Source: an uncultured Alphaproteobacteria bacterium
Lineage (GTDB): Bacteria > Pseudomonadota > Alphaproteobacteria > RF32 > CAG-239
DNA: 58,748 bases
NCBI GenBank assembly: GCA_944392225.1
Contig: CALXWB010000006.1
Coordinates: forward strand, 1-58,748
Reading direction: 5' to 3'
Below, in pieces: positions 32,247 to 58,748 of the stretch (positions within the stretch are counted from its first letter, which is position 1; the number at the start of each line of letters is the position of its first letter). The position numbers and the translations under genes were made by a program. Below the pieces are notes generated by a model. The model worked only from the letters and a program-made list of their open reading frames with translations, did no database searches and was not told where the DNA came from.

Positions 32247-32255
32247 CGGCTAACC

Positions 32256-34364: not shown

Positions 34365-34375
34365 TTTTATTTATC

Positions 34376-35710: not shown

Positions 35711-35737
35711 TTTTTTACCCTCTGATCTCTACCTTTG

Positions 35738-36088
35738 TTATTTTGCGGCTTTGACAACCTCGGTCATGGTTATGCCCAATTTGTCATCAACCACAACAAC
35801 CTCTCCTCTGGCAACCAGATTGTTGTTGACATAGACATCTATGGCTTCGCCAACCTTGCGGTCAAGCTCTATGATGGCGCCCTTGTTCAAGCTCATCAGC
35901 TGGCTGACTTTCATCTTGGTTTTGCCCAAAACCGCCGATACTTTCACCGGAATCTCATATATTGCTTCCAAATCATTGACAGAGCTCGGGATGTTGAAGT
36001 TGTCCATGTCTTCTTGCGTGCGCAAAATCGGCTCTTCTCCGACGTTGCCGTTGTCGCTCATTTCATCTAACTCTAAGTTCTTATCCAT
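35738..36088 (-). CDS. fliN: Flagellar switch protein FliN
   Basis: IPVKVSAVLG, LDRKVGEAIDVYVNN, ARGEVVVV. Confidence 0.96.
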   Translation of the reverse strand: MDKNLELDEMSDNGNVGEEPILRTQEDMDNFNIPSSVNDLEAIYEIPVKVSAVLGKTKMKVSQLMSLNKGAIIELDRKVGEAIDVYVNNNLVARGEVVVVDDKLGITMTEVVKAAK

Positions 36089-36100
36089 TTTTTCCTCGTT

Positions 36101-36862: not shown

Positions 36863-36887
36863 CAACCCTTCTCCGTCTGATTTTCAA

Positions 36888-37910
36888 CTAGTAAATCAGC
36901 TCATCATTTTCTTTACCTTCACTAATCACAATCTCACCGGCGTTCGAAAGCTCTTTAGTGGTGGTAACAATATATTGTTGTGCTTCTTCAACATCGCGCA
37001 GGCGAACAGGTCCCATGGCTTCCATATCTTCTTTGATAATCTTTCCGGCACGGGTGGACATGTTGTTGAAGAACAAATCTTTGATGGTGTCTGATGCACC
37101 TTTCAAGGCAATTGCCAGCTTGTCTTTATCGACATTGCGCAGCAAAACTTGAATACCTTGAGAATCGACCCTGACCAAATCTTCAAACGTAAACATAAGA
37201 GATTTGACGCGTTCGGCACTCTCGCGGTTTCTTTCTTCCAAGGCTTCCATAAACCGACTCTCGGTATTGCGATCCAAAGAGTTGAAAATATCGGCAATGA
37301 GCTCGTGCGCATCGCGTCTGGAAGACTTGGACAGATTGCTCATAAACTCTTTGCGCAAGGTCTTTTCCAAACCATCCAAAACTTCTTTTTGCACCGAATC
37401 CATTCTGAGCATGCGCATGACAATTTCCATGGCAAAATTTTCCGGCAACAACGCAATGACCTTGGCTGCGTGTTCTGCCTTGATCTTTGACAAAATAACG
37501 GCAATGGTTTGCGGATATTCGTTTTTCAAATAGTTGGCCAAAACATGCTCGTTGACATTGCCCAGTTTGTCCCACATCGTGCGGCCTGCCGGACCTCTGA
37601 TCTCTTCCATAATCACGGATACGCGGTCTTTATCCAGAGCTTTGGACAATAATCTTTCCGTGCTCTCGTATGTGCCCATTAACATGCCGCTGTTGGAAGC
37701 TCTTTCTATAAACTCATCAAAAAGTTGCTCCACAACATTGGAGTTGACCTTGCCCAAGCTGGCCATGACAACAGACAGCTCTTTTATCTCTTCATCGTCC
37801 ATTAAGGCAAACAAAGATGATGACCTCTCGTCGTTTAGAGAGAGCATCAAAATGGCTGCTTTCTGCTGGCCGCTAAGTAAGTTATAATCATCTATCACAT
37901 TTGGTTTCAT
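36888..37910 (-). CDS. fliG: Flagellar rotor protein FliG
   Basis: QKAAILML, EYPQTIAVILS, MFTFEDL, NMSTRA...EDME...GPVRLRDVEEAQ. Confidence 0.97.
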   Translation of the reverse strand: MKPNVIDDYNLLSGQQKAAILMLSLNDERSSSLFALMDDEEIKELSVVMASLGKVNSNVVEQLFDEFIERASNSGMLMGTYESTERLLSKALDKDRVSVIMEEIRGPAGRTMWDKLGNVNEHVLANYLKNEYPQTIAVILSKIKAEHAAKVIALLPENFAMEIVMRMLRMDSVQKEVLDGLEKTLRKEFMSNLSKSSRRDAHELIADIFNSLDRNTESRFMEALEERNRESAERVKSLMFTFEDLVRVDSQGIQVLLRNVDKDKLAIALKGASDTIKDLFFNNMSTRAGKIIKEDMEAMGPVRLRDVEEAQQYIVTTTKELSNAGEIVISEGKENDELIY

Positions 37911-37926
37911 GTTTTTATCCTCTCAC

Positions 37927-39549
37927 TTAGTTGCCATCGGTTGAATATAACCAACTGCGAATGATGCTGACCGCTGCTTCCGGATTTTTCTCTATCAAAT
38001 CATTAATCCGTTTCAGAGATGACACTTTAACCCTTCCATCAACCTTGTTCAGGTTCACCAGCTCATCCAAATCGGCATCATTGTCGTTTAAGAAGTTGGA
38101 CAAGAGCAAATTGTCGTCTTCGGGGTTTTCACCCAACAATTTGGCATTCGGTCCTTGTTGGGCACTGTTTTCAAAGGCATTGTTGATAAGCGGACGAATG
38201 ACCAGCAAAATCACCAATATTGCCACTATTGCCACGCCCAGACCCTCTGCCATGCGCATCAGTTCTTTCTTGGTAAAGCCCATAATCAAAATTTCAGGGG
38301 CTTTTTCCATCTCTTCACCAAGACTTGCAAAGCGAATGTTTTCCACTTCAACCATATCTCCTCGGTTGGCATCAAAACCGACTGCCGACTTGACCAAAGC
38401 TTTTAATTGCTCCATTTCTTCTGCCGTGCGCGGACGATATACCATTTTGCCTTCGGCATCTTTTTCATAAACACCGTCAACCATCACGGCAACCGTCAAA
38501 CGCTTTATCTCACCCGTGTTTTTGATCTTGTTTCTAACCGTCTTGGAGATTTCATAATTGATGGTCTCTTCGGTTTTGTTGCTTTGCGAAACAATGTTGT
38601 TGCCCGATGTGACCGTATCTCCGTTGGGTATGTTTTGTGATACGGTTACAGGATTTTCCACATCATTGGATATGCCGCTCTCGCTGATGGTTTGGCTGGA
38701 ACGCGCCACTTGCGAATCCGGGTCATAAATTTCTTCATTGGTCACAACCTGGTCAAAGTCCATCTCAATATTGACTCTGGCTTGTGCTTTGCCCGCACCG
38801 ACGGCTTTTTCCATCATTTCAACCACGCTTTTGGCCATTTTGCGTTCTTGTTCCATGCGCATGATTTCGTTGGTGGCATTGTCTTGGGCCTGCTTGTCCT
38901 CAGAATCGGTTGTCAGCAACTTGCCGCTGCTGTCCACTATTGATACATTTTTAACATCAAGCTTTGGAACTGCCGCTGCAACCAACTTTTGAATCGATTG
39001 CACTTCTTTGGTATCCAACGGCCCATTTTTGGTTTTGACTACAACGGAAGCAGACGGCACCTGCTCTTCTCTTGAAAACATTTCTCTTTTCGGCAAAACC
39101 AAATGAACCCTTGCGCTCTTGATATTGTCTACCGAGCGAATCGTTCTGGCAAGCTCTCCTTCCAGCGCTCTGATGAGGTTGATGTTTTGCACAAAATTGG
39201 TGGAGCCCAAAGCATCGGTATTGTCAAAAATTTCATACCCGACATTGGAGCCTTTGGAAGCCAAAGCCAGCTCTGCCGTTTCTACACGCATTTTATTAAC
39301 CTGGTCTGCCGGCACCAAAACCTCCGTGCCGTTTTTGGCCAGTTTGTATTTTATGTTATCTGCTTCCAGGCGTGAAACGATTTGTTTGGCATCTTCCAAC
39401 TCTAAGTCCGTATATAAAACAGAATATTCCACCGAGTTTATTTGCATGATGATATAGGCAAAAAAACTGATCAAAAATATCACGATGGCGGCCAAAGATA
39501 CCAATCTGCCAGGTGACAAATTTTTTATACTTTGCAAAAAATTATTCAC
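37927..39549 (-). CDS. fliF: Flagellar MS-ring protein FliF
   Basis: VGYEIFD, RALEGELARTI, ARVHLVLP, ASVVV, RGDMVEV, NPEAAVSIIRSWL. Confidence 0.97.
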   Translation of the reverse strand: MNNFLQSIKNLSPGRLVSLAAIVIFLISFFAYIIMQINSVEYSVLYTDLELEDAKQIVSRLEADNIKYKLAKNGTEVLVPADQVNKMRVETAELALASKGSNVGYEIFDNTDALGSTNFVQNINLIRALEGELARTIRSVDNIKSARVHLVLPKREMFSREEQVPSASVVVKTKNGPLDTKEVQSIQKLVAAAVPKLDVKNVSIVDSSGKLLTTDSEDKQAQDNATNEIMRMEQERKMAKSVVEMMEKAVGAGKAQARVNIEMDFDQVVTNEEIYDPDSQVARSSQTISESGISNDVENPVTVSQNIPNGDTVTSGNNIVSQSNKTEETINYEISKTVRNKIKNTGEIKRLTVAVMVDGVYEKDAEGKMVYRPRTAEEMEQLKALVKSAVGFDANRGDMVEVENIRFASLGEEMEKAPEILIMGFTKKELMRMAEGLGVAIVAILVILLVIRPLINNAFENSAQQGPNAKLLGENPEDDNLLLSNFLNDNDADLDELVNLNKVDGRVKVSSLKRINDLIEKNPEAAVSIIRSWLYSTDGN

Positions 39550-39606
39550 TTATATTCCCCAATTTTTGAGCTTTTATTCTCAATTCAATAAAAATACTTC
39601 CCTTTC

Positions 39607-39622
39607 GTTATACATAACTTAA
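39607..39622 (-). promoter_or_regulatory. Imperfect CtrA box upstream of fliF
   Basis: Minus strand TTAA-GTTATGT-ATAAC, one mismatch to TTAA-N7-TTAAC; AT-rich context weakens it. Confidence 0.4.
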
Positions 39623-39678
39623 AAATTTTTATAATTAAATGATATTTTTAAATATTCACAAGTTATCCCCTTTGGCAC

Positions 39679-39706
39679 AAAAAAAGCCCCCGTTTTCACA
39701 GGGGCT
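39679..39706 (-). terminator. Terminator after flgE
   Basis: AAAAAAAGCCCC-CGTTTTCACA-GGGGCT, U tract on minus strand. Confidence 0.75.
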
Positions 39707-39736
39707 CAACTTTAGGAAAAATTTGCAAATTTTATA

Positions 39737-41983
39737 TTAGATTAATCTTGTCAATTCCTCTAACATTTCATCTGCGGTGGTAATAATTTTGGTTGAAGCC
39801 GAGTAAGCTCTTTGTGTGACAATCATATTTGAGAACTCGGTAGCCAAATCAACGGTTGATGCTTCCAAAGCATTGCCGCTGATTTCGCCGGCACCGTCAA
39901 CACCTGCTTGTTTCAGCAACGGTTGGCCCGAAGCATCGGTTTCAATCCAAGCATTACCTGTTAAAGCACTCATGGCGTTGGCATTGGTGAAAGTGGCAAG
40001 CGGTAAAATGGCTATCGGACGTGTTTCACCATTGTCAAACAAGGCTGTCACAACACCATTTTCACTTACTGTCACGCCGGAATAACTACCATATTTTGCA
40101 CCGTCTTGTTTGATGTAGTTGGTGGAAAAACTTCCGGCCAAGCTGGTCAAACCATCCGTGGTGCCGGTGTTGCCCATGCTGATTTTTACGGTTGTACCGT
40201 TACCAACCGAGCCATCCATATTTTCTGCACCGTTTGCCCATTGAATGGACATGTCTTCAACATAGAAATATTTCGGTGTTCCGTCTGAGTTAAAGCGAAC
40301 AGCCGGAACCATGGAGCCGTCTTCAACATCCAAACCGTTGGTCGTAAAGCTGCTGGAGATGGTGTGTTCTCCCGTGGCAACCGCATTGCCGTTGACCCAG
40401 GTGTTGCCATCATTGCGCAAAGAACCGGTTACACCTGCCAAGCTGTTCATGTTTAAGGTGATATCTCCGCCCGTGCCGGTCGGCATAATTTCAATACTGC
40501 TACCGCTGGCAACAAAACGGTTCGGCTCCGTGACATTGGCTTTGATGGCAGCCACCGTCAATTCTACCAGTTTTACGGTATCAATTTTGCCGCCAGCAAT
40601 GGCTGAAGAAATATCAATATCCGTTGCTGCGGCCGCACCGCCGTTTTTAAAGGTGAATGTGGTGCCGTTGATGGTAAATGTTTGGTCTGTATAATCGCCC
40701 AAAGTGGTCGAAGTAAAGTCTAAACGAGCCGTGTTTTTGATATCCGGGTCAATTTCAGGAATTTGGAAAATACCTGTCGGAATACCTGTGGCCAAAACAG
40801 GGTTTGCTGCCGATTGAACACAAGCTTGGGTTTGGCTGGCATTGACTGTTAAGGCTGCACCGGCCTGAGATTGAACGATCTGAATCGAATCGCTGGTGGC
40901 GCTAAAACGATCTGCACTCGGCATATTGGCCTGAATCACATTATTAAATGCATTTATAAAATCTGATACCGAGGTAATGCCATCTTGAATATCCACTTTC
41001 AATTGAACATTATTGCCTTGGCTTTGCGGTGCATTTATATCCGTGTTTAAGAAGTTAAAGACATAGTTTTTGCCGGTGCTTTGATCCGTGATTGTGATGC
41101 TTGAACCATTGGCCGGAATTGCCTTGAATTCCAATTGGCCTGCAGCATAATATACATCGGCAGAACCTCCGTCGGTCACTTCCTTATTGCCGGTCAAAAT
41201 CAAGTTAGCTGCACCTGAGGGCATGTCTACTTCCATTCCCCAAGAGTTGGTGCTCTTTTTAACAAAGTTGATGCTCAAGTTGCTTGAGTTACCCAAGCTG
41301 TCATAAATCAAGGCAGAAATTGAGCGATATCCGCCGGCATCGGGTGAGGTGGCATCATAAACCGGGTCATCTGCCGGCAAGTTTGCTCCAAAGCTAATTT
41401 GTTGGGTCGGGCTGGCCGTGCCGCCAATTGTGGCCAAATTAATCGGTTTTAAGTTTTTGCTGTCTACAATATTGTCATTGACATAAACCGTGGCTCCCGT
41501 AGTGTCATAATAGGCCTTCATATAGGTTACGCCGCCTACCTCTACCGTTGTGGCATTGGGGTTGCCGTCCCAAGGCAACAAAGACCAGCCTTGCGCATAA
41601 AAACCGCCGGTGTTGACCAAATAGCCTGACGTATCCACACCGAAATCTCCGGCTCTGGTATAAGCCCAAGCATCACCTTCTTGCGGGTTGGCTGCTTGGT
41701 TTACAACAAAGAAACCCGTGCCGGAAATAGCCAGTGCTGTTGATGATGAGGTTGATGACAACAAACCCTGAACATCTATTCCTTGTTTGGAAACCGGCTG
41801 AACACCGCCCGGGGAATAAAAGTTTGATGAGGTTTGCTTGGTCACCAAAGTTTGAAATGCAACACTGGTTCCTTTATAACCAATGGTGTTTACGTTTGAG
41901 ATATTATCGGAAATTGCACCCATTGCATTTGACTGGGCGGTCATTCCCGAAATACCCGATTGCATTGCTCCAAAAAGACTCAT
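39737..41983 (-). CDS. flgE: Flagellar hook protein FlgE, long form (748 aa)
   Basis: ISDNISNVNTIGYK, YTRAGDF, LEASTVDLATEFSNMIVTQRAY; follows flgD. Confidence 0.93.
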   Translation of the reverse strand: MSLFGAMQSGISGMTAQSNAMGAISDNISNVNTIGYKGTSVAFQTLVTKQTSSNFYSPGGVQPVSKQGIDVQGLLSSTSSSTALAISGTGFFVVNQAANPQEGDAWAYTRAGDFGVDTSGYLVNTGGFYAQGWSLLPWDGNPNATTVEVGGVTYMKAYYDTTGATVYVNDNIVDSKNLKPINLATIGGTASPTQQISFGANLPADDPVYDATSPDAGGYRSISALIYDSLGNSSNLSINFVKKSTNSWGMEVDMPSGAANLILTGNKEVTDGGSADVYYAAGQLEFKAIPANGSSITITDQSTGKNYVFNFLNTDINAPQSQGNNVQLKVDIQDGITSVSDFINAFNNVIQANMPSADRFSATSDSIQIVQSQAGAALTVNASQTQACVQSAANPVLATGIPTGIFQIPEIDPDIKNTARLDFTSTTLGDYTDQTFTINGTTFTFKNGGAAAATDIDISSAIAGGKIDTVKLVELTVAAIKANVTEPNRFVASGSSIEIMPTGTGGDITLNMNSLAGVTGSLRNDGNTWVNGNAVATGEHTISSSFTTNGLDVEDGSMVPAVRFNSDGTPKYFYVEDMSIQWANGAENMDGSVGNGTTVKISMGNTGTTDGLTSLAGSFSTNYIKQDGAKYGSYSGVTVSENGVVTALFDNGETRPIAILPLATFTNANAMSALTGNAWIETDASGQPLLKQAGVDGAGEISGNALEASTVDLATEFSNMIVTQRAYSASTKIITTADEMLEELTRLI

Positions 41984-42008
41984 TTTTTTTCTCCTAAAGT
42001 TTTTTTAA

Positions 42009-42788
42009 TTATATGGTGTAATAACTTTGCGTTTCTTCTGCAGGAGGGGTTTCTTCCTCTTTGTCGCCTTCTGAGCCTTCTACGTTGCCGCTGCCTGAAT
42101 TCTTGTCAAAGTAGTCATCATTGCGAATTGTGACAATATCGCCCAATTGTGCCGTTACGGCATCACCAAGACCAACATATATGTTGTTTTGGTCACTGGC
42201 CACACCCGTAACTTTGCCAAAAATCGTCGTGGTTACGGAAGCTGCCGTTTCTCCGTCGGCAACCTTGGTGGTTACAACAATTTGGTAAGCACCGTCTTCC
42301 AACTGTTTGCCGTTTGAATCTTTTCCGTCCCATGTAAACTCGTGTGTGCCGGATGTTTTTTCGCCATTTTGCGTATATACAATGTTGCCGCTCATGTCTT
42401 TGACCACAATGCTTGAAGACAAGACATCTTTGTCAAGAGTGTATGTGGCTTTGGCCTTGGCGCCTTCCAGGGGCATAACATCGCCCAAAACCTGAACGGT
42501 CTTGCCAATATAAGAAACGGCTTGAGCTCCCAAGTTGGCTATGTTTAAAGACATTAAAGTATCTAATTTTTCATTGGTTTGGATGGCTTGCTCAACCGAT
42601 GAATATTGAACCAGCTGATTGGTAAATTCTGCCGTGTCCATCGGATCCATCGGATCTTGATATTTTAATTGTGTGGTCAACAGCTGCAAAAATGTGTTCA
42701 TATCTGCAGAAAGCTGTGCCGAACTCTTATTTGTTGAGCTGGTGCCGTTGGTATAATAACCTGTGATTCCGCTTATATCTGTTGTCAT
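42009..42788 (-). CDS. flgD: Hook capping protein FlgD
   Basis: FLQLLTTQLKYQDPMDPMD, QYSSVEQ, FTWDGKD. Confidence 0.96.
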   Translation of the reverse strand: MTTDISGITGYYTNGTSSTNKSSAQLSADMNTFLQLLTTQLKYQDPMDPMDTAEFTNQLVQYSSVEQAIQTNEKLDTLMSLNIANLGAQAVSYIGKTVQVLGDVMPLEGAKAKATYTLDKDVLSSSIVVKDMSGNIVYTQNGEKTSGTHEFTWDGKDSNGKQLEDGAYQIVVTTKVADGETAASVTTTIFGKVTGVASDQNNIYVGLGDAVTAQLGDIVTIRNDDYFDKNSGSGNVEGSEGDKEEETPPAEETQSYYTI

Positions 42789-42807
42789 GGCTTTTCTCCT
42801 CTAAAGT

Positions 42808-44505
42808 CTATACCCTGATATTCAAGCCTTTTTCTGCCGTCCAATTTTGGTTGGCTGCTTCCGAAGTGATAATATCCGGGTTGGCTTCTTGTTCAAAAAC
42901 CTTACCGATGAAACTGCGCAGCTGTTCTCCCTGCCCTTGCGCCTGATTGCCGTCATTTCTGAAGCTAAAGCTCAGGCTGTTGCCATCGGTTTCAAATCCG
43001 GCATCGTTAAATGCCTTTTCCAGAACTTGCGCATCTCTTTGCAAGGCTTCCATTGTTTCTGGACGGCTGGAAATGATATGCGCTTGTAATTTGCCATCCT
43101 TAATTTGCATCTTGATTTCAATATGACCTAAATCTTCCGGCTTGAGGCGAACTTCAATCGTATCCACCCCTTTCACGGCTGATTTGGTGATATTTACTTT
43201 TACTTGCTCTACAGCTTCTTTGCTCATGCCTTTATAAATATCTCTGAAAGATGTTTGTGTGCTTTTATCTGCCGCTTCTGCTTTGGCCGCCGCGTTGAAC
43301 TCGGCACCGCTTATAACGGCATGATTTCCCATATCAGCTTTGGCTGAAACAGACTTAATATCCGTTACGGCCACGCTTTGTTGATTGTTCACAGCTTCTG
43401 CCGTGTTTTGCATATTCTGCATGGCAACGCCCGCCTGCATATTTTCTGCTTGCGTCGGAGCCGATTTTGATGCTGTTGTGGTAGTCGGCTGCGTTGTTGT
43501 TTGTGCCGGAGCATCAAGCTTGCTTTCCGTTTCTTGCAAAGCAAAACTGTTTTTTACCAATTCTTTTTGGTTGAGATAGGAAATTTTTTCCTCTTTGACA
43601 TTAACAGACAATTTGACTTGCTTATCGGCCAAAGTTTCTTCTATTTTTTTGACATCTTCCAACTCAGACAAATCTATCGTTTGCGGTTCTTCCGATACAA
43701 CCTCTGTTGTCTGTTTGGCTTTTGATTGCGCTTTAACAGCTGTTGCTGCCGTTTGAGAAAGCTCTCCGGCCATTTCAGCTTCCGGCAAAATTTCAGCAAC
43801 GGGATTTGTTGCTGGAAGAAGTTTTTGAGACAATTCTGCCCCGCTTAAATTGATGCTTTCTTGCGTTTGCGGGGCGATCAAAGTCACATTTTGCATTTGA
43901 GACAAAAGATTTGCAGAAACCTTTTCGGGGGCAATTTGGTTGCCGTTTTCATCCAAGACCTGTATCTCTCCCGATGATATTTTATCCATTACCGTTTCCG
44001 GCGATGTTGTGAGCATATCTTGCAAGGAGACGCTTTCTTCTCCGGCGGCCGCTTCTGCCTGTTGGGAAATATTTGCCGCTTCAATCGGGGCAGCAAATGC
44101 GGCCACAACCTTGTCCGAATTGTCTTCATCTTGAGCCGATTTATCTTTCACATTTTCTTCAGCAGGGGCTGTATTTTCCTTAACCTCTGCAGAATCATCC
44201 TTTTCAGCCTTATCATCTGGCGTTTTGTCTGCTGAGGTATTTTTTTCAACCGCCTCATCTTTATATTCTGTTTTTTCTTTATATTCTGTTTTTTCCTTTA
44301 CAGGCTCTTCTTGCGTCTTTTTATCTGACGCTTTTTGAATATCGGTATTTTTATCTTCGGTTTGCCCGATTGAAGAAAATTCCGGTGTATTTTTCTCCAA
44401 CAAACCGGCAAAGCTCTCCGTTCCGATTGCAGGCGTGCTTATCTGAGAAACAAGTTTGCTGAACTGAGCGGTGATGCTTAATTTATTTAATTCATTAATA
44501 TCCAT
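42808..44505 (-). CDS. fliK: Hook-length control protein FliK
   Basis: Low-complexity N-region, C-terminal RLKPEDLGHIEI...LQRDAQVLEKAFNDAGF; start ATG 44505. Confidence 0.9.
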   Translation of the reverse strand: MDINELNKLSITAQFSKLVSQISTPAIGTESFAGLLEKNTPEFSSIGQTEDKNTDIQKASDKKTQEEPVKEKTEYKEKTEYKDEAVEKNTSADKTPDDKAEKDDSAEVKENTAPAEENVKDKSAQDEDNSDKVVAAFAAPIEAANISQQAEAAAGEESVSLQDMLTTSPETVMDKISSGEIQVLDENGNQIAPEKVSANLLSQMQNVTLIAPQTQESINLSGAELSQKLLPATNPVAEILPEAEMAGELSQTAATAVKAQSKAKQTTEVVSEEPQTIDLSELEDVKKIEETLADKQVKLSVNVKEEKISYLNQKELVKNSFALQETESKLDAPAQTTTQPTTTTASKSAPTQAENMQAGVAMQNMQNTAEAVNNQQSVAVTDIKSVSAKADMGNHAVISGAEFNAAAKAEAADKSTQTSFRDIYKGMSKEAVEQVKVNITKSAVKGVDTIEVRLKPEDLGHIEIKMQIKDGKLQAHIISSRPETMEALQRDAQVLEKAFNDAGFETDGNSLSFSFRNDGNQAQGQGEQLRSFIGKVFEQEANPDIITSEAANQNWTAEKGLNIRV

Positions 44506-44543
44506 CTTTTTTATCCCGATAAAGGTTACGTTTGCCTTATCCT

Positions 44544-44560
44544 TGCAAAAAGCATGCCAA
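44544..44560 (-). promoter_or_regulatory. Sigma54 (-24/-12) promoter of fliK-flgD-flgE
   Basis: Minus strand TTGGCAT-GCTTT-TTGCA, ~40 nt upstream of the fliK ATG. Confidence 0.85.
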
Positions 44561-44575
44561 AAAAAATAAGCGCAC

Positions 44576-44613
44576 AAAAAAAAGAGATTCTTTTATTTTG
44601 GAATCTCTTTTTT
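44576..44613 (-). terminator. Terminator after flaF
   Basis: AAAAAAAAGAGATTC...GAATCTCTTTTTT inverted repeat. Confidence 0.75.
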
Positions 44614-44633
44614 CTTCATATGAATTTTCAGAT

Positions 44634-45020
44634 TTACTTATTTTCTTCAGGCGAAACTTCTTCGTGTTCGGACAAACCGCGCGCTATGTTCATATTGATG
44701 TTTATCAAAATATCCAAACTCTCCGGCTTGGGGTTGGCCAAAATCTCCAACGTGCGCTTAAACACAAACATGGATAAATTTAAGATATTTTTTCTTAACT
44801 CTTCCGGCTGAGGAGATGTGTTATCTCCCATGGCGCTGGCAATAATGCTCCACAAACGACGGTTCTTCTCCAGCGCTTCAGACAGACTGTCGTTACTTTG
44901 TTCCCAATTTTCTTTAATTTGGTTGAGTCTGGATGCCGTTCTTATTAAGGCTCTGCTTTCAAGCTCAACCTGATTCATCCCGGAAACTTCTGTTTCGGCA
45001 TATCTGTTGGTTATATTCAT
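44634..45020 (-). CDS. flaF: Flagellar biosynthesis regulator FlaF
   Basis: ELESRAL, ALEKNRRLWS, PEELRKNILNLSMFV, LININMNIARGL. Confidence 0.9.
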   Translation of the reverse strand: MNITNRYAETEVSGMNQVELESRALIRTASRLNQIKENWEQSNDSLSEALEKNRRLWSIIASAMGDNTSPQPEELRKNILNLSMFVFKRTLEILANPKPESLDILININMNIARGLSEHEEVSPEENK

Positions 45021-45045: not shown

Positions 45046-45061
45046 TTAAAAACTTTTTAAC
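45046..45061. promoter_or_regulatory. CtrA box in the flaF divergent intergenic region
   Basis: Exact TTAA-AAACTTT-TTAAC; AT-rich context. Confidence 0.55.
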
Positions 45062-49145: not shown

Positions 49146-49241
49146 TTTTCTGCGGTTTGACAAGGGCTTGCCATTGCCTTTGTGAAACTTTGTTTTGATA
49201 AATGGCGTGATGATTAAATATAAAAAAAAGGATATTTTAAT

Positions 49242-51173
49242 ATGGTTGCGATTAAATTGCCTGATGGCAGTAAGTTAGAGATGGAAAGCGGGGTCAATGG
49301 TTTTGACATCGCTCAGAAAATCAGTTCAAGTTTGGCTAAAGCCGCTTTGGCTATCAAAGTTAACGGAAAAACACAAGATTTAAGCACTCCTATCACTACC
49401 GACGCAACCGTGACTATCATCACCGGCAAGGATAAAGAAGGCTTGGAAATCTTGCGTCACTCTTGCTCTCACGTGATGGCTCAGGCCGTTAAAGAGCTCT
49501 GGAATGATGTTCAAGTGACTATCGGCCCGGCTATTGAAAACGGTTTTTACTATGACTTTGCTCGCAAAGAACCTTTTACAACCGATGATTTTGCCAAGAT
49601 TGAAGCCAAAATGCACGAGATTGTGAAACGTGATGAAAAGCTTGAGCGCATTGTTATGCCGCGCAATGAGGCTATCAAATTTTTCAAAGACAAAGGCGAA
49701 CACTACAAAGCCGAGATTATTGAAGATTTGCCGGAAGATGAAACAATTTCTCTTTATCGTCAGGGTGACTTTACCGACCTTTGCCGCGGCCCGCACGTGC
49801 CATCAACCGGCAAAATCGGCGATGCTTTCAAATTGATGAAAGTGGCCGGCGCTTATTGGCGCGGAGATTCAAGCAAAGAGATGTTGCAACGAATCTATGC
49901 CACGGCTTGGGCAAATAAAAAAGATTTGGAAGATTATCTCCATATGATGGAAGAAGCCGCCAAACGTGACCACCGCAAGCTCGGTAAAGAAATGGATTTG
50001 TTCCACTTTGAGCCGGAATATGCTCCGGGTGCCGTTTTCTGGCATGACAAAGGTTACAAAGTCTACCGCAAACTCATTGAATATATGCGCAAACGTCAAG
50101 AAAATAACGGTTATATCGAAATTTCTACCCCGCGCGTGATGGATAGATGCTTGTGGGAAATTTCCGGCCACTGGGATAAATACGGAGCACATAACTATTC
50201 CGGCCAAACCGAAGATAAAAAATGGTTCTGCATTAAACCGATGAATTGCCCCGGTGGTTTGCTCGTCTATAAACAAGGCATTAAATCTTATCGTGATTTG
50301 CCGCTGCGTATTGCAGAGTTTGGTAAGGTTAACCGTTATGAAGCCTCGGGTGCTTTGATGGGCTTGATGCGTGTTCGTGAGTTTACTCAAGATGATGCAC
50401 ATATTTTCTGCACGCCGGAACAAATGGAAGCTGAATGCATCACCACGTTGAAACTGATTTTGGATATTTACAAAGACTTTGGTTTCAACGATGTGAAAAT
50501 TTATCTTTCGACCCGCCCGGACAGCATTTATCGAATCGGCTCCGATGAGATTTGGGATTTGTGCGAAAATGCTTTGGCTCATGCTTTGGAAAGCCATGGC
50601 TATAAATATGAAATTAACCCCGGTGAAGGTGCTTTCTACGGTCCAAAACTTGAGTTTATTTTGAAAGATGCCATCGGCCGTGAATGGCAATGCGGCACTA
50701 TTCAAGTGGATATGAACTTGCCGCAACGCTTTGATATTTCTTATATCGGCGAAGATGGCGAGAAACACCAACCCGTGATGTTGCACCGTGCATTGTTTGG
50801 TTCAATCGAGCGCTTCCTTGGTATTTTGATTGAAAACCACGCCGGCAAGTTGCCGCTCTGGCTCTCGCCGGAACAAGTTGTGGTTTGCCCGATTACTTCC
50901 GATATGGATGATTATGCTGAGGAAGTGACCGATATTTTGAAAAAGAACGGACTTTATGCCAAAGCTGATTTGCGCAACGAAAAAATCAGCTACAAAATCC
51001 GTGAACATTCGGTTGCCAAAATCCCGGTTATTGCCGTGGTCGGGGCCAAAGAAAAAGAAAACAGAACCGTTACGGTGCGCCGTATCGGCTCTGACAAACA
51101 AGAGGTTGTTAAACTTGATGACTTTGTCAAAGCTTTGGTTGAAGAAGCTAAAATGCCGTCTCAAGATAAATAA
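49242..51173 (+). CDS. thrS: Threonine-tRNA ligase
   Basis: TGS domain, HSCSH, DLCRGPH, KPMNCP, RVREFTQDDAH, HRALFGSIERF. Confidence 0.98.
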   Translation: MVAIKLPDGSKLEMESGVNGFDIAQKISSSLAKAALAIKVNGKTQDLSTPITTDATVTIITGKDKEGLEILRHSCSHVMAQAVKELWNDVQVTIGPAIENGFYYDFARKEPFTTDDFAKIEAKMHEIVKRDEKLERIVMPRNEAIKFFKDKGEHYKAEIIEDLPEDETISLYRQGDFTDLCRGPHVPSTGKIGDAFKLMKVAGAYWRGDSSKEMLQRIYATAWANKKDLEDYLHMMEEAAKRDHRKLGKEMDLFHFEPEYAPGAVFWHDKGYKVYRKLIEYMRKRQENNGYIEISTPRVMDRCLWEISGHWDKYGAHNYSGQTEDKKWFCIKPMNCPGGLLVYKQGIKSYRDLPLRIAEFGKVNRYEASGALMGLMRVREFTQDDAHIFCTPEQMEAECITTLKLILDIYKDFGFNDVKIYLSTRPDSIYRIGSDEIWDLCENALAHALESHGYKYEINPGEGAFYGPKLEFILKDAIGREWQCGTIQVDMNLPQRFDISYIGEDGEKHQPVMLHRALFGSIERFLGILIENHAGKLPLWLSPEQVVVCPITSDMDDYAEEVTDILKKNGLYAKADLRNEKISYKIREHSVAKIPVIAVVGAKEKENRTVTVRRIGSDKQEVVKLDDFVKALVEEAKMPSQDK

Positions 51174-53334: not shown

Positions 53335-54552
53335 TTATGACTTCAAGTCGCGGACAACTTGCAACATTTCATCGGCAACGGTAAACGAACTAGAGTTCAT
53401 GCCATAAGCTCTTTGAATGACCACCATTTTGCTGAACTCTTTTTCCACATTGGCGGTGGATTGTTCCAAGGCTTGCGGCACAAGATAATTGCCGCCGTCT
53501 TCTATCAACACGGCATTGCCGCTGGCACCGTTGGCCTCAAATAAAGTGCCGGAAATCGGGGTCAAGTTATCAGGCGCGGCAAAACTACTCAAGGCAATTT
53601 TGGCAATTTTTACCGTTTCACCATTGGTATAGAGGGCAGAAACAATTCCGTCTTCACCAATAGAAGCTTCTTTAAAAGCACCGCCTTCTTGCCCATCTTG
53701 TTTGATGTTGGTGATGCCGCTGCTTCCGGCATATTGCGTCATTTTTTCTATATTCATATTAATGGCATTGGTTGAGCCATCTGCCCAAGTGACATTGAGG
53801 TTGAAGTTGGTGGGAGAGATGACTTTTCCATCATTTGAAAATAAAACCTCAATCGGTTCGGAAGAAACGGTGGCGCCATCCATCTCAAAGGTGACGTTCC
53901 AGGCATTGTTTTTGCCTTCCACCTTATGAAAAACCATATTCATATTGGCGCCATTATCATTCGGACCATAAACCATAATGCCGTAGCTGCTGTTTTCCAC
54001 ACCGTCGGCCGGCACATTGGCGCCGATTTGGACTTGACTTGTCGGCGTAGCCGGTATTTTTTCGGGATAATTGAGCACAATATCTGAAATTGAGGTGCCG
54101 AAAGTTCCATCCTCGTTAGGCATGAAGCCTTGAACGCGCATACCATTGTTGGCCACCAGATAAGGCTGACCATCTGTCAGCTGAATGCGAAAGTTGCCGG
54201 CACGTGTATAATACATATCACCCGAATAACTGTCTCGCACATTGAAAAAAGCATTGCTGTTGCCGTTGATGGCTACATCAAAGTTGCTGTTGGAGGCCAC
54301 AACCTGCCCTTGCGAGGTGATAAGGGTTCTGTCATAATAGCCGACGCCTTGCGTGTCCACACGTGTTGACTGCAGACCGCTTGCGGCATTGCCTTTGACC
54401 ACGGGAATTGAGCCCAACATGGTATAAAACATGGTTTCGCTTGATTTATAGCCCACCGTGTTGATATTGGCAATGTTGGTGCTCACGGTTTCCAGCGCAT
54501 GTGACTGGGAGTCCATCCCGGTGACTGACGGGGTAAAAATACTCAGCGCCAT
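53335..54552 (-). CDS. Second flagellar hook protein (FlgE-like, 405 aa)
   Basis: NIANINTVGYK, YTRAGNF, LEQSTANVEKEFSKMVVIQRAY; length fits a hook rather than a rod protein. Confidence 0.85.
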   Translation of the reverse strand: MALSIFTPSVTGMDSQSHALETVSTNIANINTVGYKSSETMFYTMLGSIPVVKGNAASGLQSTRVDTQGVGYYDRTLITSQGQVVASNSNFDVAINGNSNAFFNVRDSYSGDMYYTRAGNFRIQLTDGQPYLVANNGMRVQGFMPNEDGTFGTSISDIVLNYPEKIPATPTSQVQIGANVPADGVENSSYGIMVYGPNDNGANMNMVFHKVEGKNNAWNVTFEMDGATVSSEPIEVLFSNDGKVISPTNFNLNVTWADGSTNAINMNIEKMTQYAGSSGITNIKQDGQEGGAFKEASIGEDGIVSALYTNGETVKIAKIALSSFAAPDNLTPISGTLFEANGASGNAVLIEDGGNYLVPQALEQSTANVEKEFSKMVVIQRAYGMNSSSFTVADEMLQVVRDLKS

Positions 54553-54816: not shown

Positions 54817-55305
54817 ATGGCTAACCCATTGGATACTAAAGTTATCAGCAAATTGGCTGAAATTCTTGATAAAAGTAATTTAACCGAACTTGAATATGAA
54901 GATGAAACTTGCAGAATTTGCCTGACCAGAGAGGTCAACGTTGCCCCTGTTGCAGCTCCTGCTTTTGCACCCATGCCGCAAGCTTTGCCCGTTGCCGCTC
55001 CGGCCGCTGCTCCCGCACCTGCTGCCGAAACACCTGCTCCGGCTGCCGCTGATCAAGACTTTTCAAAACATCCGGGTGCTGTTAAATCTCCGATGGTCGG
55101 CGTGGTTTATTTGTCTGCCGATCCTAACTCTCCAAACTATGTTAAAGTTGGTGACTCTGTGGCCGAAGGTGACACCGTTTGCTTGATTGAAGCCATGAAG
55201 ACTTTCAACCCCGTTAAAGCTCATAAAGCCGGCAAAGTTACCAATATTTTGGTTGATACCGGCGACCCGGTTGAATATGGCGAACCTTTGGTTATTATTG
55301 AATAA
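54817..55305 (+). CDS. accB: Biotin carboxyl carrier protein
   Basis: Ala/Pro linker, SPMVG, EAMK biotinylation motif; start ATG 54817. Confidence 0.96.
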   Translation: MANPLDTKVISKLAEILDKSNLTELEYEDETCRICLTREVNVAPVAAPAFAPMPQALPVAAPAAAPAPAAETPAPAAADQDFSKHPGAVKSPMVGVVYLSADPNSPNYVKVGDSVAEGDTVCLIEAMKTFNPVKAHKAGKVTNILVDTGDPVEYGEPLVIIE

Positions 55306-55334
55306 GTCATCCCGCCAACTTTAAGGATTTTAAT

Positions 55335-56681
55335 ATGTTTGAAAAAGTTTTGATTGCTAACCGTGGTGAAGTTGCTTTGCGTATTCATCGTGCTTGCCGC
55401 GAGATGGGAATCCGCACCGTAGCCGTCCACTCCGAGGCCGATGCCGACGCCATGCACGTGCGCTTGGCTGACGAGGCCGTTTGTATTGGTCCGGCTCGTT
55501 CCACCGACTCATATCTGAATATGTCGGCAATTATTTCCGCCGCACATATTACCGGGGCTGACGCTATCCATCCCGGTTTCGGCTTCTTGTCCGAAAGTGC
55601 AGATTTTGCCGAGATGGTTGAAGAACACGGAATCACTTTCATCGGCCCAAGACCCGAAATTATGCGCATGATGGGTGATAAAATCACCGCACGTGAAGCT
55701 TCCATCAAAGCCGGATTGCCCGTTGTGCCGGGATCTCCTGCTTTGGAAAGTGTGGAACACGCCATTGAATGGGCTCACAAAATCGGCTATCCCGTGATTG
55801 TTAAAGCCAAAGACGGCGGCGGCGGTAAGGGTATGAAAACCGCTTTCAACGACGAGGAAATGAAAGAAGCTTATACCATGGCTAAAGCCGAAGCTAAAAA
55901 CGCTTTCACCAGCGATGTGGTTTATATGGAAAAATATTTGCAAAAACCACGTCATATTGAAATGCAGGTTTTGGCCGATAACTATGGTCATGTGGTGCAT
56001 TTGGGTGAACGTGATTGTTCCATCCAACGCAACCACCAAAAGGTGATTGAGGAAACCCCTTCCCCGGCTTTGAACCAAAAACAACGTGAAGAAATCGGCG
56101 AGATTGCACGTCACGCTGCCGAAGTTTTGGGTTATAATAACGCCGGAACTATGGAGTTTTTGTATGAAGACGGTAAATTCTATTTCTTGGAAATGAACAC
56201 CCGTTTGCAAGTGGAACACCCCATTACCGAGGCTATCAGCGGTATTGATATCGTTAAAGAGCAAATCCGCATTGCCAGCGGCGCCGAACTGGGTTATAGC
56301 CAAAAAGACATTCAGTTCAGCGGACACGCCATTGAATGCCGAATCAACGCCGAAGACCCTGAAACTTTTGCACCTTGGCCCGGCAAGATTACCGAATGGC
56401 ATGCCCCGGGCGGTTTGGGCGTGCGCGTTGATTCTGAAATTTATTCAGGATACAGAATTCCGCCTTATTATGACAGCATGATTGCCAAGCTCATTGTGCA
56501 CGGCAAAACACGTAATGCTGCTTTGATGCGCTTGCGTCGTGCTTTGGAAGAGTTTGTGATTGAGGGGGTGAAAACCACTATTCCGCTGCACCAAGAAATT
56601 ATATCTCAGCCGGAGTTTATTGACGGCCAATATAATATTCACTGGTTGGAAAAATTTATGGCCTCAAAACACAAGGCATAA
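55335..56681 (+). CDS. accC: Biotin carboxylase
   Basis: LIANRGEVA, GGGGKGM, ERDCSIQR, EMNTRLQVEHP, YYDSMIAKLI. Confidence 0.98.
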   Translation: MFEKVLIANRGEVALRIHRACREMGIRTVAVHSEADADAMHVRLADEAVCIGPARSTDSYLNMSAIISAAHITGADAIHPGFGFLSESADFAEMVEEHGITFIGPRPEIMRMMGDKITAREASIKAGLPVVPGSPALESVEHAIEWAHKIGYPVIVKAKDGGGGKGMKTAFNDEEMKEAYTMAKAEAKNAFTSDVVYMEKYLQKPRHIEMQVLADNYGHVVHLGERDCSIQRNHQKVIEETPSPALNQKQREEIGEIARHAAEVLGYNNAGTMEFLYEDGKFYFLEMNTRLQVEHPITEAISGIDIVKEQIRIASGAELGYSQKDIQFSGHAIECRINAEDPETFAPWPGKITEWHAPGGLGVRVDSEIYSGYRIPPYYDSMIAKLIVHGKTRNAALMRLRRALEEFVIEGVKTTIPLHQEIISQPEFIDGQYNIHWLEKFMASKHKA

Positions 56682-56698
56682 ATTGCGCCGAGAAAGAC

Positions 56699-56732
56699 AA
56701 AAAACCTCTTCTGAAAATGAAGAGGTTTTTTT
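56699..56732 (+). terminator. Terminator after accC
   Basis: AAAAAACCTCTTC-TGAAAAT-GAAGAGGTTTTTT. Confidence 0.85.
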
Positions 56733-56749
56733 GTGAAAAATTAAGCATA

Positions 56750-56765
56750 TTAACCAAACATTAAC
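56750..56765 (+). promoter_or_regulatory. CtrA box upstream of flagellin
   Basis: Exact TTAA-CCAAACA-TTAAC, ~90 nt before the flagellin start. Confidence 0.65.
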
Positions 56766-56857
56766 CTGAAATATGGTAGTTTTAAAGACGGATGAAAAGG
56801 TTTGAGTAAAAAAGCACATCCAAAGTATTGTAATATATCAAAAAGTAGTTGGTGGAT

Positions 56858-58618
56858 ATGTCAGAAATAAGTTTAACAGCGTCCATGCGCAGCAATTTGT
56901 TAAGCTTGCAACAAATAGCAAAGTTGCAAGACAGCACGCAATTACGCTTATCCACCGGCTTAAAAGTCAATTCCGCCATAGATAATCCCAGTTCTTATTA
57001 TACTGCCAGCTCGCTTAATAACCGAGCCGAGGATTTGTCAGCATTGCTTGATTCGATGGGACAATCGGTGCAGACCATTAAAGCTGCAACCGAGGGGATT
57101 GAGAAAGCAGAAGAGCTTTTAGCCATTGCGCAAGCCACGGCCAACTCGGCTTTGGAAGATATAAAAATTCCCGAAAAAAGCTATTTTGAAAGCCTGGTCG
57201 GAGAAAACGGCGCGGTTGTCAGCAGCAAAGAAGAATTGTTAAACGCCGTCAATGCCGGCAAAGAAGAAATATGCATCTATGGTGAGATTGATATGGGTGA
57301 CCAAACCATCACCTTAACCGACAATCAGAAACTGGTTGGTATTGGTTATTATGGCAAATTTGACTCTGACACCGATAAATTTTCTTCTCTCAAATTTGAA
57401 TATGAAGGTATTGAAGGAAGAAACTTTATTTTTTCTGCTAAGAGCAACAATGTCATTTCAGATTTATCAATAAATGTGAATTCCTTAAACAACCAATTCT
57501 GCAGCGCTATTGCTTTTGATAATGCTACAAATGCAATCATTCAAAATATAGATATTCAAGCTAACACAACAGCTTTATCTATAGCTACTTCAACCAATAT
57601 AAAATTAGATGGAAAAAACTTTTTTAATCTTTACGAAAAAGATACTATATATGCCATTGATTCAAACTCTTCAACTTTTGATATCTATGGGGAAACTACA
57701 ATCAAGAATATTGGTCCGTCATATAATTATGGATTGTGTAGCGGAGGCCAAACCGGCCAAATCAATATTTATGGCAAGATGAATATTCATAGCGAAGGAA
57801 GAAATTCTTTTAATGTGGCTCTCGGAGAAGGAAAAATCAATTTTAAATCCGGTTCAGAGCTTAATATGCAAGGTTTTCTTTTTGTTGCAGAAACACAAAC
57901 GACCGCCCCCGGAATAATGACTTTTGAAGCCGGAGCAAAGTTGAATTATCAAAATCAAGGAAGTTTTCTCGCTTCTAATGAAATAGCGGTTACAGGAAAT
58001 ATGGGCTCAGGTGGACATATAAATATCACTGCAAATTATATCCGTCAAAATTTAACTGATTTCACCGAAACGGATTATAAATGGGAAGAAATTGATTTTG
58101 AGGGCGACAATAGCGGTGCCAAAGGCAAAGTAGAAGATAAATATAATTCAAGTTTCAACAAAACTTTGTCGCAATATGATAGTTTGATTAAAGATAGTTC
58201 TTATAAAGGCGTGAACTTGCTTCAAGCCGATGATTTGAAAGTGATTTTTAATGAAAACAGAAGTTCAACCTTAGAGGTGAGCGGCGTGGATTTGAGCTCC
58301 GATAAAATCGGTATGATGACGGCTGATTGGTTAACCGCTGAAGATGTGCAAAAAACCATAGAACAATTATCTAACGCCAAAAACGCCCTGCGTTCGGCCT
58401 CAACCAAGCTCGGCAACTATTATTCCATCATCACCGAGCGCGAGACTTTTACCGATAATTTGATTAATGTGCTGGAAGAAGGTGCGGATAAGCTCACGCT
58501 TGCTGATATGAATGAAGAGAGTGCCAATATGCTCTCCCTGCAAACGCAACAACAACTGGCGATTAATTCTTTAAGCCTTGCATCACAGGCCAGCCAAGCT
58601 GTCCTGAGATTGTTCTAA
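56858..58618 (+). CDS. Flagellin (Rhodospirillales/Bradyrhizobium polar type) with large beta-rich insert
   Basis: ISLTASMRSNLLSLQ...RLSTGLKVNSAIDNP, DSSYKGVNLL, LADMNEESANMLSLQTQQQL...QAVLRLF; start ATG 56858. Confidence 0.92.
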   Translation: MSEISLTASMRSNLLSLQQIAKLQDSTQLRLSTGLKVNSAIDNPSSYYTASSLNNRAEDLSALLDSMGQSVQTIKAATEGIEKAEELLAIAQATANSALEDIKIPEKSYFESLVGENGAVVSSKEELLNAVNAGKEEICIYGEIDMGDQTITLTDNQKLVGIGYYGKFDSDTDKFSSLKFEYEGIEGRNFIFSAKSNNVISDLSINVNSLNNQFCSAIAFDNATNAIIQNIDIQANTTALSIATSTNIKLDGKNFFNLYEKDTIYAIDSNSSTFDIYGETTIKNIGPSYNYGLCSGGQTGQINIYGKMNIHSEGRNSFNVALGEGKINFKSGSELNMQGFLFVAETQTTAPGIMTFEAGAKLNYQNQGSFLASNEIAVTGNMGSGGHINITANYIRQNLTDFTETDYKWEEIDFEGDNSGAKGKVEDKYNSSFNKTLSQYDSLIKDSSYKGVNLLQADDLKVIFNENRSSTLEVSGVDLSSDKIGMMTADWLTAEDVQKTIEQLSNAKNALRSASTKLGNYYSIITERETFTDNLINVLEEGADKLTLADMNEESANMLSLQTQQQLAINSLSLASQASQAVLRLF

Positions 58619-58653
58619 AAAATCGTCTAACTGGGAACTAGAGTATTGGACAC

Positions 58654-58685
58654 AAAAAAAGCTCTACAGCTGCAGAGCTTTTTTT
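58654..58685 (+). terminator. Terminator after flagellin
   Basis: AAAAAAAGCTCTACA-GC-TGCAGAGCTTTTTTT. Confidence 0.8.
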
Positions 58686-58748
58686 GTTTTGCTTTATTTC
58701 TTGCCGGCGGGCTTGACCGGGGCATTGACTTTGTTTTGCAAATCTTTA

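Follow-up and report, generated by a model that had tools for sequence, protein, structure and literature searches.

The contig CALXWB010000006.1 (assembly GCA_944392225.1), which comes from an uncultured alphaproteobacterium of the chicken gut, carries a gene for a flagellin, here called P0001, in which a large insert separates the two conserved flagellin ends. The whole contig of 58,748 nucleotides (nt) is referred to as the window, and positions are given in its coordinates. From comparisons of sequence, we consider it probable, on balance, that P0001 serves as an accessory flagellin, that its D1 loop presents a variable beta-solenoid as an adhesin-like surface, and that it belongs to a large co-regulated family. 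In the proposed mechanism, the window's own flagellar type III apparatus would export the conserved D0/D1 ends, which would polymerise into the filament; the surface of the filament would thereby bear many copies of the domain of about 330 amino acids (aa) that lies in the loop between helices ND1a and ND1b. This domain would comprise a conserved cap, or head, related to the Pfam family PF20585, followed by a hypervariable body of coils of about 27–28 residues, the number of which would vary among paralogues, and it would act as a non-enzymatic binding or antigenically variable surface rather than as a lyase. About 20 single-gene units appear to have a common promoter/leader of some 110 nt (a CtrA-box-like motif plus a hairpin), and, because the units share it, the cell could build filaments with mixed or changing surfaces.

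The open reading frame (ORF) at 56849–58618 of the plus strand begins with TTG and encodes 589 aa. The ATG at 56858 is taken as the likely start codon because it is preceded by GGTGGA and yields the usual flagellin start, MSEISLTASMRSNLL; the product, P0001, then has 586 aa. Both flagellin ends are intact, as had been predicted from the sequence alone: the Pfam domains Flagellin_N (30.0 bits against a cut-off of 26.6) and Flagellin_C (34.8 bits against 23) are found at residues 15–103 and 506–589 of the 589-aa form, and a Pfam scan gives nothing credible between them. The best NCBIfam matches are flagellin subfamilies, all under their curated cut-offs (PRK12688, 202.2 against 614; PRK14708, 185.2 against 1384; PRK12687, 67 against 311). 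Every peptide quoted in the original prediction is present in the translation, and the span that it assigned to the insert, 57161–58135, corresponds to residues 102–426. Terminator-like hairpins are present both upstream, where one closes the accB-accC unit, and downstream, and the gene forms a single-gene unit; no tandem repeats were found in its DNA.

The gene with its insert is real. Its reality was checked by comparison, over 55300–58748, with contigs from four public runs that carry chicken-gut or metagenome labels, and one of these runs may itself be the source of the assembly. Positions 57338–58176 lie inside an 839-letter contig of one run (X1) and 57253–58176 inside a 924-letter contig of another (X3), with zero differing letters in either; a third run has 51 differing letters across 988 in the insert stretch. 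Depth over the insert (23.3 in X1 and 6.4 in X3) is near that over accC (25.8 and 8.9–14.4). The conserved flagellin ends draw 20–60 times more depth, as is expected because many paralogues and related strains contribute to it, and in none of the four runs does a contig span from accC to the insert, the contigs breaking at the conserved ends. Among the 22 runs listed, none is of RNA.

Flagellin outer domains are mostly immunoglobulin (Ig)-like and are found at one classical site. P0001 carries its large, repeat-built domain not there, but at the ND1a/ND1b loop. In alignments with proteins of the PDB, residues 9–101 match residues 9–101 of Sinorhizobium FlaA, and residues 430–586 match residues 112/114–272 of Caulobacter flagellins of 270–273 aa; with flagellin-core alignments on either side, the roughly 329 intervening residues must replace the short loop between the two helices. 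After the insert come ND1b (FNKTLSQYDSLIKDSSYKGVNLL), a hairpin, CD1 and CD0, and there is no extra domain at the classical D2/D3 site. The C-terminal match to PRK12688 likewise starts at ND1b (protein residue 434 to profile position 592 of 752), that model having a large insert in the same place, and a 485-aa flagellin encoded on another contig of the genome (C15) also bears an insert of its own, unrelated to that of P0001, at the ND1a/ND1b site. Since the long NCBIfam models and this flagellin share the site, its use is a habit of the lineage, and the insert does, as was originally noted, precede DSSYKGVNLL, the variable site of this lineage, and is large and foreign-looking. The TLR5 segment QRVRELAV is indeed absent, the homologous stretch being GIEKAEELLAIAQATAN. 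That the absence has any special meaning is not supported: alphaproteobacterial flagellins are not known to carry the TLR5 motif, so that its absence is expected and is nothing special to the P0001 gene. Residue R90 is named as a TLR5 hot spot in PMC4938411; the aligned stretch of P0001 is KAEELLAIAQ. In Salmonella numbering, if the numbering may be transferred, the ND1a/ND1b loop would lie about 10 residues past R90.

The insert belongs to a family. Searched alone against 1.84 billion cluster representatives, it gives 86 matches at E<=0.001, 57 of them at E<=1e-10, and nearly all fall near residues 100–430 of proteins of about 600 aa, that is, in flagellins. Inserts of the family are between 302 and 544 aa long and differ by block indels; that of P0001 has 329 aa. 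An alignment and profile of 47 inserts (A2) has a conserved head (PxKxYFExxVGxNGAVVSTxxELxxAxxSGKETICVYGxIDLG...NQKLVG...KFS...SDLS...N), behind which lie a body interrupted by block insertions and deletions and a tail that is semi-conserved. Across 108 sequences of full length, the 26 insert columns that are invariant or at least 90% conserved all lie within residues 105–230, and residues 231–438 contain no column conserved to that degree. There is evidence that the body is built from repeats. Hydrophobic autocorrelation over the 47 insert bodies peaks at lags 2, 8, 16–18 and 26–28, and the value at lag 28 (0.081) exceeds those of 200 out of 200 shuffles, the maximum of which is 0.033. When a 544-aa insert is taken as master for a self-comparison of the profile with hhalign, off-diagonal matches with probabilities of 98.9 and 98.8% are obtained at offsets of 54–56; with a 494-aa insert as master there is one at offset 54 (98.4%) and another at offset 113 (97.6%). 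The offsets of 54–56 therefore point to tandem units of about two coils of 27–28 residues each.

The nature of the head is indicated by PF20585 (Pectate_lyase_5), which Pfam describes as a ‘pectate lyase-like adhesive domain’. A related flagellin, P0200 (615 aa), passes this profile (27.6 bits against the cut-off of 24.3, over profile positions 2–125 of 126), and in a profile–profile comparison the family profile A2 aligns with residues 107–409 of P0200 over 291 columns (98.8% probability, E 4.6e-17), the PF20585 match of P0200 covering the stretch aligned to the conserved head of P0001. Among the 47 inserts themselves, Pfam finds PF20585 weakly in two (best E 1.8e-4) and DUF2807 in two. Within this bacterial family PF20585 is frequent and also heads large secreted proteins: of 41 genomes of relatives, 14 have a match at E<=0.01, and in 12 the cut-off is exceeded. 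Three of the four PF20585-headed ORFs that were scanned carry an Autotransporter beta-domain (99.0, 99.6 and 119.6 bits) together with AIDA and Chlamydia-PMP repeats, and two of three N-terminal pieces score 37.7 and 38.4 bits with PF20585. Many large Pmp-like type Va autotransporters (1260–1549 aa) headed by PF20585 occur in genomes of the family (loci L122, L123 and L125 of genomes G002 and G023, among other places), with up to six PF20585 matches in one genome of 1.7 Mb. A profile of the flagellin-insert heads (A3) matches a profile built from 18 autotransporter heads (A4) with 90.3% probability (E 1.5e-6), the cap helix and first strand being common to both.

The insert domain is also found outside flagellins. 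P0188, a secreted non-flagellin of 853 aa with Cys-rich repeats and a visible signal peptide, is matched by A2 with 98.8% probability and contains the domain twice. Because the second copy is 52% identical to the insert of the flagellin P0200, the comparison suggests that insert domains are exchanged between flagellins and secreted proteins. In another family of the order (L144, G025:C82:1500-9500), two secreted-looking ORFs, 997 and 771 aa long and partly masked, hold two copies and one copy of the domain, respectively, between Cys/His-rich linkers. In two other flagellins, from related metagenome-assembled genomes (L058, ORF 5986–7641, and L079, ORF 1232–3562), the inserts give matches of 31.4 and 26.2 bits to Lcl_C, the C-terminal domain of the Legionella collagen-like protein, which are below the cut-off of 34.9; these sub-threshold matches hint that several adhesin-type modules may have been grafted at the same flagellin site.

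Taken over the family, these results make it likely that the insert is a beta-rich repeat solenoid with a pectate-lyase-like cap, and we hold the same, with slightly less assurance, for the insert of P0001 itself. Several observations weigh against this and should be set out together. The solenoid is deduced from sequence only, and the support comes from the family rather than from P0001 alone. The rung periodicity that the original prediction saw in P0001 holds for the family at lag 28, and fails in P0001 taken by itself, where the observed peak is reached by 196 of 2000 shuffles and the lag-2 value by 91 of 2000. The internal repeat of P0001 is weak too, consisting of one off-diagonal alignment at offset 54 (12% probability, E 0.0025). 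P0001 has no match to PF20585 at E<=1, and there are 0 matches to this profile anywhere in the genome at E<=0.01. A search of the PDB with A2 gives 0 matches at E<=10, and one with A3 gives none that is significant (best E 0.057; the best that is relevant to the fold is Pectate lyase B, E 0.41). With P0001 as the query, the PDB sequence matches are to flagellin cores only, and a PDB search with P0188 finds nothing. The link between A3 and A4 spans only 33 columns, and a comparison of A2 with a whole autotransporter passenger is not significant (probability 1.1%); for these two reasons the connection with autotransporters goes no further than the cap and the chain that runs through P0200. Finally, polymerisation and co-expression are, like the fold, what we infer, and binding by the displayed surface is purely so. 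P0001 is best described, from these comparisons, as a short, degenerate member of the insert family. Of the proposed beta-helix passenger, then, there stand a family built from repeats and a conserved head that is homologous to PF20585 via P0200, while P0001 itself falls below the PF20585 threshold. No similarity to phage proteins, such as would point to a tailspike, appeared in a tblastn search of 50,697 phage records (no match at E<=0.01); a plasmid collection gave no match and PHROGs 0 families for five proteins.

It had also been proposed that the displayed domain might degrade glycans. According to this reading, the beta-helix is a polysaccharide lyase or hydrolase and the filament breaks down host or dietary glycans, in the manner of flagellinolysin. 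The proposed fold class is indeed that of the pectate lyases, the non-significant match of the head profile to Pectate lyase B points the same way, and enzyme-bearing flagellins exist (cited in PMC11532411). Against it, Pfam and NCBIfam searches of P0001 and Pfam searches of the 47 inserts match no lyase, hydrolase or peptidase family, the P0001 translation has no HEXXH, and the repeat body, which lacks highly conserved columns as described above, has no conserved polar column. The variable number of repeats would, moreover, disrupt a fixed active-site cleft. We therefore regard an enzymatic flagellin as improbable and favour a non-enzymatic surface.

The composition of the insert is as originally described. 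It is rich in Asn (10.8%), Ile (9.9%), Gly (9.9%) and Ser (9.0%), and it is AT-rich, with a GC content of 0.29–0.375 in 200-nt windows over 57300–58199 against 0.45–0.47 before and 0.43–0.46 after. The GC content at third codon positions (GC3) is 0.298 in the insert, 0.495 in the N end and 0.478 in the C end, so that the compositional difference sits at synonymous sites. For 517 long ORFs of the genome, the median GC3 is 0.46 and the 5–95% range 0.34–0.54; the insert lies below this range and the ends are typical, which makes the insert, and not the ends, the odd part. Recent import of a foreign AT-rich insert into this one gene was considered and is ruled out, because GC3 is low (0.22–0.34, at or below the genome's 5th percentile of 0.34) in the inserts of all 13 complete paralogues. 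The ends have a GC3 of 0.43–0.58 in 12 of these 13; in the remaining one, named C15a, the ends are low too.

The number of these paralogues is the more surprising finding. The genome (1,456,797 bases in 78 contigs, 94.9% complete) gives 38 matches in a search with P0001, and when ORFs in every frame are scanned for flagellin ends, 19 N-terminal and 21 C-terminal ones appear, on contigs C3, C5, C7, C8, C9, C13, C15, C21, C22, C28, C32, C33 and C58. The copies are not strain variants of one locus, because they occur at different places on long contigs (three on C3, of 86 kb, and three on C9). There are 13 complete genes, three that are split by a frameshift and seven pieces cut by contig ends. 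The insert profile has 22 matches in the genome; most of the flagellin genes bear this type of insert. The insert of one group of paralogues (group B), which is missed by phmmer, is the same domain according to profile comparison (99.4% probability, E 1e-21). The frameshifts all fall inside the insert (C21:7066-9151, C3:84657-86457 and C13:31757-33747); the split copies on C21 and C3 are 93% identical and have the same frameshift, and the three may be pseudogenes, assembly errors or cases of slippage. An element of about 100–130 nt is repeated directly 3′ of at least 10 of the paralogues, sometimes in two tandem copies (on C3 at 49226–49357, with a second copy beyond, and at 84556–84644; also on C5, C7, C8, C13, C21, C22, C28 and C58), and occurs at about eight other places (C9:5880, C10:13678, C18:8478, C20:1130, C21:16899, C25 and C50:5216 among them). 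It is absent after the P0001 gene and has no Rfam match over threshold.

The paralogues have conserved ends and divergent inserts, as the original prediction anticipated: over 78 pairs, the N ends have a median identity of 0.89 and the C ends one of 0.81, against 0.27 for the inserts. The nearest paralogue of P0001, at C3:49361-51109, has values of 0.99 (N end), 0.63 (insert) and 0.95 (C end). For the further suggestion of a cassette that can be swapped freely, support is weak. Paralogues with similar C ends tend also to have similar inserts (Spearman 0.78), and 12 of the 13 complete genes form four groups that are the same whether judged by N end, insert or C end; the one exception is C8b, whose C end shares 95% identity with the C end of C58, from a different group. 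Since ends and inserts thus diverge together, whole-gene duplication with fast divergence of the insert is preferred to cassette shuffling. A diversity-generating retroelement was also considered and rejected, there being no RVT_1 match in this genome; in a relative, an RVT_1 ORF (G013:C185:723-3001) lies about 1.3 kb from an ORF that bears PF20585. Synonymous divergence is lower in the N end (0.16–0.57) than in the insert (0.46–1.7). The ratio of non-synonymous to synonymous substitution rates (dN/dS) is 0.21–0.38 for the insert in the nine paralogue pairs where it can be computed, and 0.01–0.26 (N end) and 0.04–0.17 (C end) in 10 pairs. The insert is thus under purifying selection too, more loosely than the ends, which fits a folded surface domain with an exposed face that is free to change.

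The wider distribution of these genes is uneven. Pfam Flagellin_C matches, which are not exact copy numbers, amount to 19 in this genome, 1–12 in 12 genomes of the same genus (1–5 in sister species), and 43 and 52 in two 1.6-Mb genomes from other genera of the family (G013 and G023); there are none in six of 12 other genera of the family. The insert profile is found in 13 of 41 genomes (22 matches in this one; 34, 31, 17, 6 and 3 in others; one to three in seven more), with no match in any of 15 further families sampled from the class. Five genomes of the same genus (G001, G002, G003, G005 and G007) have flagellins of 470–511 aa without an insert match. Because the insert is patchy among genomes that have flagellins, insert-bearing flagellins are regarded as an accessory, patchy and expandable set. 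In a tree of the conserved ends (63 distinct rows, ORFs without near-complete ends being dropped and identical ends merged), copies group by genome or lineage, with 18 label changes against 41.2 in shuffles and 0 of 200 shuffles as low. This fits a lineage-specific expansion, or homogenisation of the ends.

It might be argued that the insert binds nothing in particular and forms a mechanical or shielding layer, which makes the filament thicker and stiffer for swimming in mucus and hides its conserved core, the divergence of the paralogues being selected by host antibodies or by flagellum-binding phages. Hypervariable inserts between conserved ends would suit this, as would the great differences in copy number between the same genus and the two richest genomes and the acidic character of all 12 inserts examined (net charges from −8 to −25); effects of outer domains on motility are, furthermore, discussed in PMC11532411. 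The head, however, is related to a family annotated as adhesive, the domain also occurs in secreted non-flagellins, and the dN/dS of the whole insert gives no sign of overall positive selection. We consider such a layer unlikely, though less so than an enzyme, and prefer a variable, adhesin-like surface. A further alternative is that P0001 is no filament subunit at all, its flagellin ends acting only as an export signal for a secreted adhesin that is released or held at a hook-proximal or tip site. The five genomes of the genus that are ready to swim with insert-free flagellins alone could be read in this way, as could the separate locus on C15, which appears to be a classical flagellin locus: flbT lies directly upstream of the 485-aa flagellin gene, the region upstream differs, and the insert is unrelated to that of P0001 (0.3% probability). 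Yet purifying selection keeps the whole of D0/D1 (the dN/dS values of both ends given above) and not merely the export signal at the N terminus, and the core of P0001 aligns end to end with Caulobacter flagellins that form filaments. The chance that P0001 stays out of the filament is, in our view, very small, and incorporation as an accessory flagellin is preferred.

Co-regulation of the paralogues is suggested by their upstream regions. A near-identical block of about 110 nt (56745–56857 in the window) is common to 16 of the 17 flagellin 5′ regions of this genome. It contains TTAACCAAACATTAAC, which fits the CtrA-box consensus, TTAA-N7-TTAAC. The motif is present in 14 of the 17 regions, 108–113 nt before the ATG; two more read TTAAT, and C15a has none. 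The genome has 49 sites of this form, where about 32 would be expected, and a gene for a CtrA equivalog (401.7 bits, the cut-off being 350). The hairpin of the leader is present in the minimum-free-energy fold, the z-score of the region being only −1.08, no better than shuffles, and a search of the leader against Rfam finds nothing over threshold. We infer that the hairpin is a candidate site of post-transcriptional control and, by analogy with Caulobacter, that FlbT/FlaF could exert such control on the leader. No sigma-70-like promoter was found upstream of the gene on the plus strand. Two results tell against a general role of CtrA. The two sites of this form in the window are within chance, since 33 of 100 shuffles have at least two, and only one of 51 flagellin loci in relatives has a CtrA-like motif, their upstream regions being different. 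CtrA control as a trait of the family is rejected on the latter ground, and control through the leader and promoter would accordingly be a feature of this species. The second site in the window, at 45046–45061, is intergenic, with flaF (minus strand) on one side and the next plus-strand ORF on the other.

The features of the locus are collected in Table 1. The window also contains a cluster of flagellar genes (30456–45020 and 53338–54552), which encode a MinD/FlhG-like protein, FlhF, FlhA, a sigma-54 activator (FlbD-like), FliN, FliG, FliF, FlgD, FliK and FlaF, as well as an FlgE of 748 aa and a second, FlgE-like protein of 405 aa. FlbT is encoded in the genome, on contig C15. There is no Pfam match to FliD_C or FliS in the genome, as is the case in the Caulobacter control genome, and a search for an MptE/Maf-like glycosylation gene gave no match.

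Table 1. Features of the P0001 locus, in window coordinates.
Feature	Position	Strand	Remarks
accC, biotin carboxylase domains	55335–56678		Upstream of the flagellin gene
Hairpin with T/A runs, terminator-like	56699–56731		Between accC and the flagellin gene; ends the accB-accC unit
TTAACCAAACATTAAC, CtrA-box-like	56750–56765	+	108 nt before the ATG; opens the ~110-nt block common to paralogues
Leader hairpin GGATG...CATCC	56790–56821	+	Aligned in 16/17 paralogues
Shine-Dalgarno-like GGTGGA	56851–56856	+	One base before the ATG; identical in 16/17 paralogues
Flagellin gene P0001, 586 codons and stop	56858–58618	+	
Residues 1–100, D0 and ND1a helices	56858–57157	+	Pfam Flagellin_N; alignment with Sinorhizobium FlaA 9–101
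Residues 101–429, insert in the ND1a/ND1b loop	57158–58144	+	GC3 0.298; flagellin-core alignments on either side
Residues 119–235, conserved head: cap helix AVVSSKEELLNAVNAGKEE, first strands, SDLS, N230	57212–57562	+	
Residues 236–400, variable repeat body, short form	57563–58057	+	Putatively ~6–8 repeats of ~27–28 aa
Residues 401–429, acidic linker returning to D1	58058–58144	+	Aligns poorly at the tail among inserts
Residues 430–586, ND1b, beta-hairpin, CD1 and CD0	58145–58615	+	Alignment with Caulobacter flagellin; Pfam Flagellin_C
Intrinsic-terminator-like hairpin with T run	58652–58687	+	3′ of the flagellin gene

So large a swarm of flagellin genes would be out of the ordinary in any bacterium, and it implies that selection where the organism meets its host is strong; how surface proteins diversify in a gut lineage that has not been cultured can be studied here in a tractable case. 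If P0001 polymerises, the D1 loop tolerates a cargo of 300–540 aa, which would be useful for engineering display on filaments. A broader idea, which we put forward tentatively and regard as doubtful, is that one lineage of small-genome gut Alphaproteobacteria uses the filament as a combinatorial display scaffold, with dozens of co-regulated single-gene flagellin units, each bearing in the ND1a/ND1b loop a different autotransporter-like solenoid as a binding surface. Mosaic or switching filaments might then act both as multivalent adhesins and as moving antigenic targets, their domains being exchanged with those of secreted proteins. Were this true, the lineage would vary its surface by a new strategy, which is built on flagellin and can be compared with the pilin or Pmp families.

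The prediction of a pectate-lyase-like domain in flagellins has been published before. Fields et al. (PMC11532411) sorted AlphaFold models of annotated flagellins into 682 outer-domain clusters, of which cluster #35 is a pectate-lyase-like outer domain, known from prediction and not from experimental study; a peptidase-like cluster (flagellinolysin) and a WD40 cluster are noted there as well. P0001 can be likened to cluster #35 by description, both being flagellins with a pectate-lyase-like non-core part. The difference is that neither the ND1a/ND1b site nor swarms of paralogues are mentioned in the sections consulted. In that study, the first 163 and last 100 residues were trimmed as D0/D1, which would cut into inserts at the ND1a/ND1b site, since that of P0001 starts near residue 101. 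Literature searches yielded this paper alone as relevant and no account of ND1a/ND1b-loop inserts or of flagellin swarms in gut Alphaproteobacteria, and term searches of PMC7018530 and PMC13353774 found nothing on copy numbers.

The closest solved cores are those of the multi-flagellin filament of Caulobacter (FljJ-O; PDB 6xky, 8uxj, 8uxn, 9cef and 9cem), with E-values of 6e-13 to 8e-11. Caulobacter has six flagellin genes, as against about 20 in the present genome. The two organisms are alike in having several flagellin genes per genome, and in having FlaF and FlbT with no match to FliD_C or FliS; they differ in that the Caulobacter flagellins, of 270–273 aa, have no outer domain. The long flagellins modelled by PRK12688 and PRK14708 (752 and 888 positions) resemble P0001 in carrying a large insert at the same place, although P0001 scores far below their cut-offs and its insert is not matched with those of the models. 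Flagellinolysin, said to have been described by Eckhard et al. in 2017, is reportedly a proteolytic flagellin with a HEXXH metalloprotease at the classical hypervariable site. It shares with P0001 the principle that a functional module is displayed on the filament by insertion into flagellin, whereas P0001 has neither HEXXH nor another catalytic signature and uses a different insertion site. The Pmp-like type Va autotransporters with a PF20585 head have in common with the flagellin inserts the cap helix and first strand, a repeat-built and beta-rich passenger, and a head profile that a related flagellin insert also passes. Their GGAI/FxxN repeats are not seen in flagellin inserts and, in contrast to them, P0001 has no signal peptide and no beta-barrel (no PF03797 match); its route of export would be the flagellar one.

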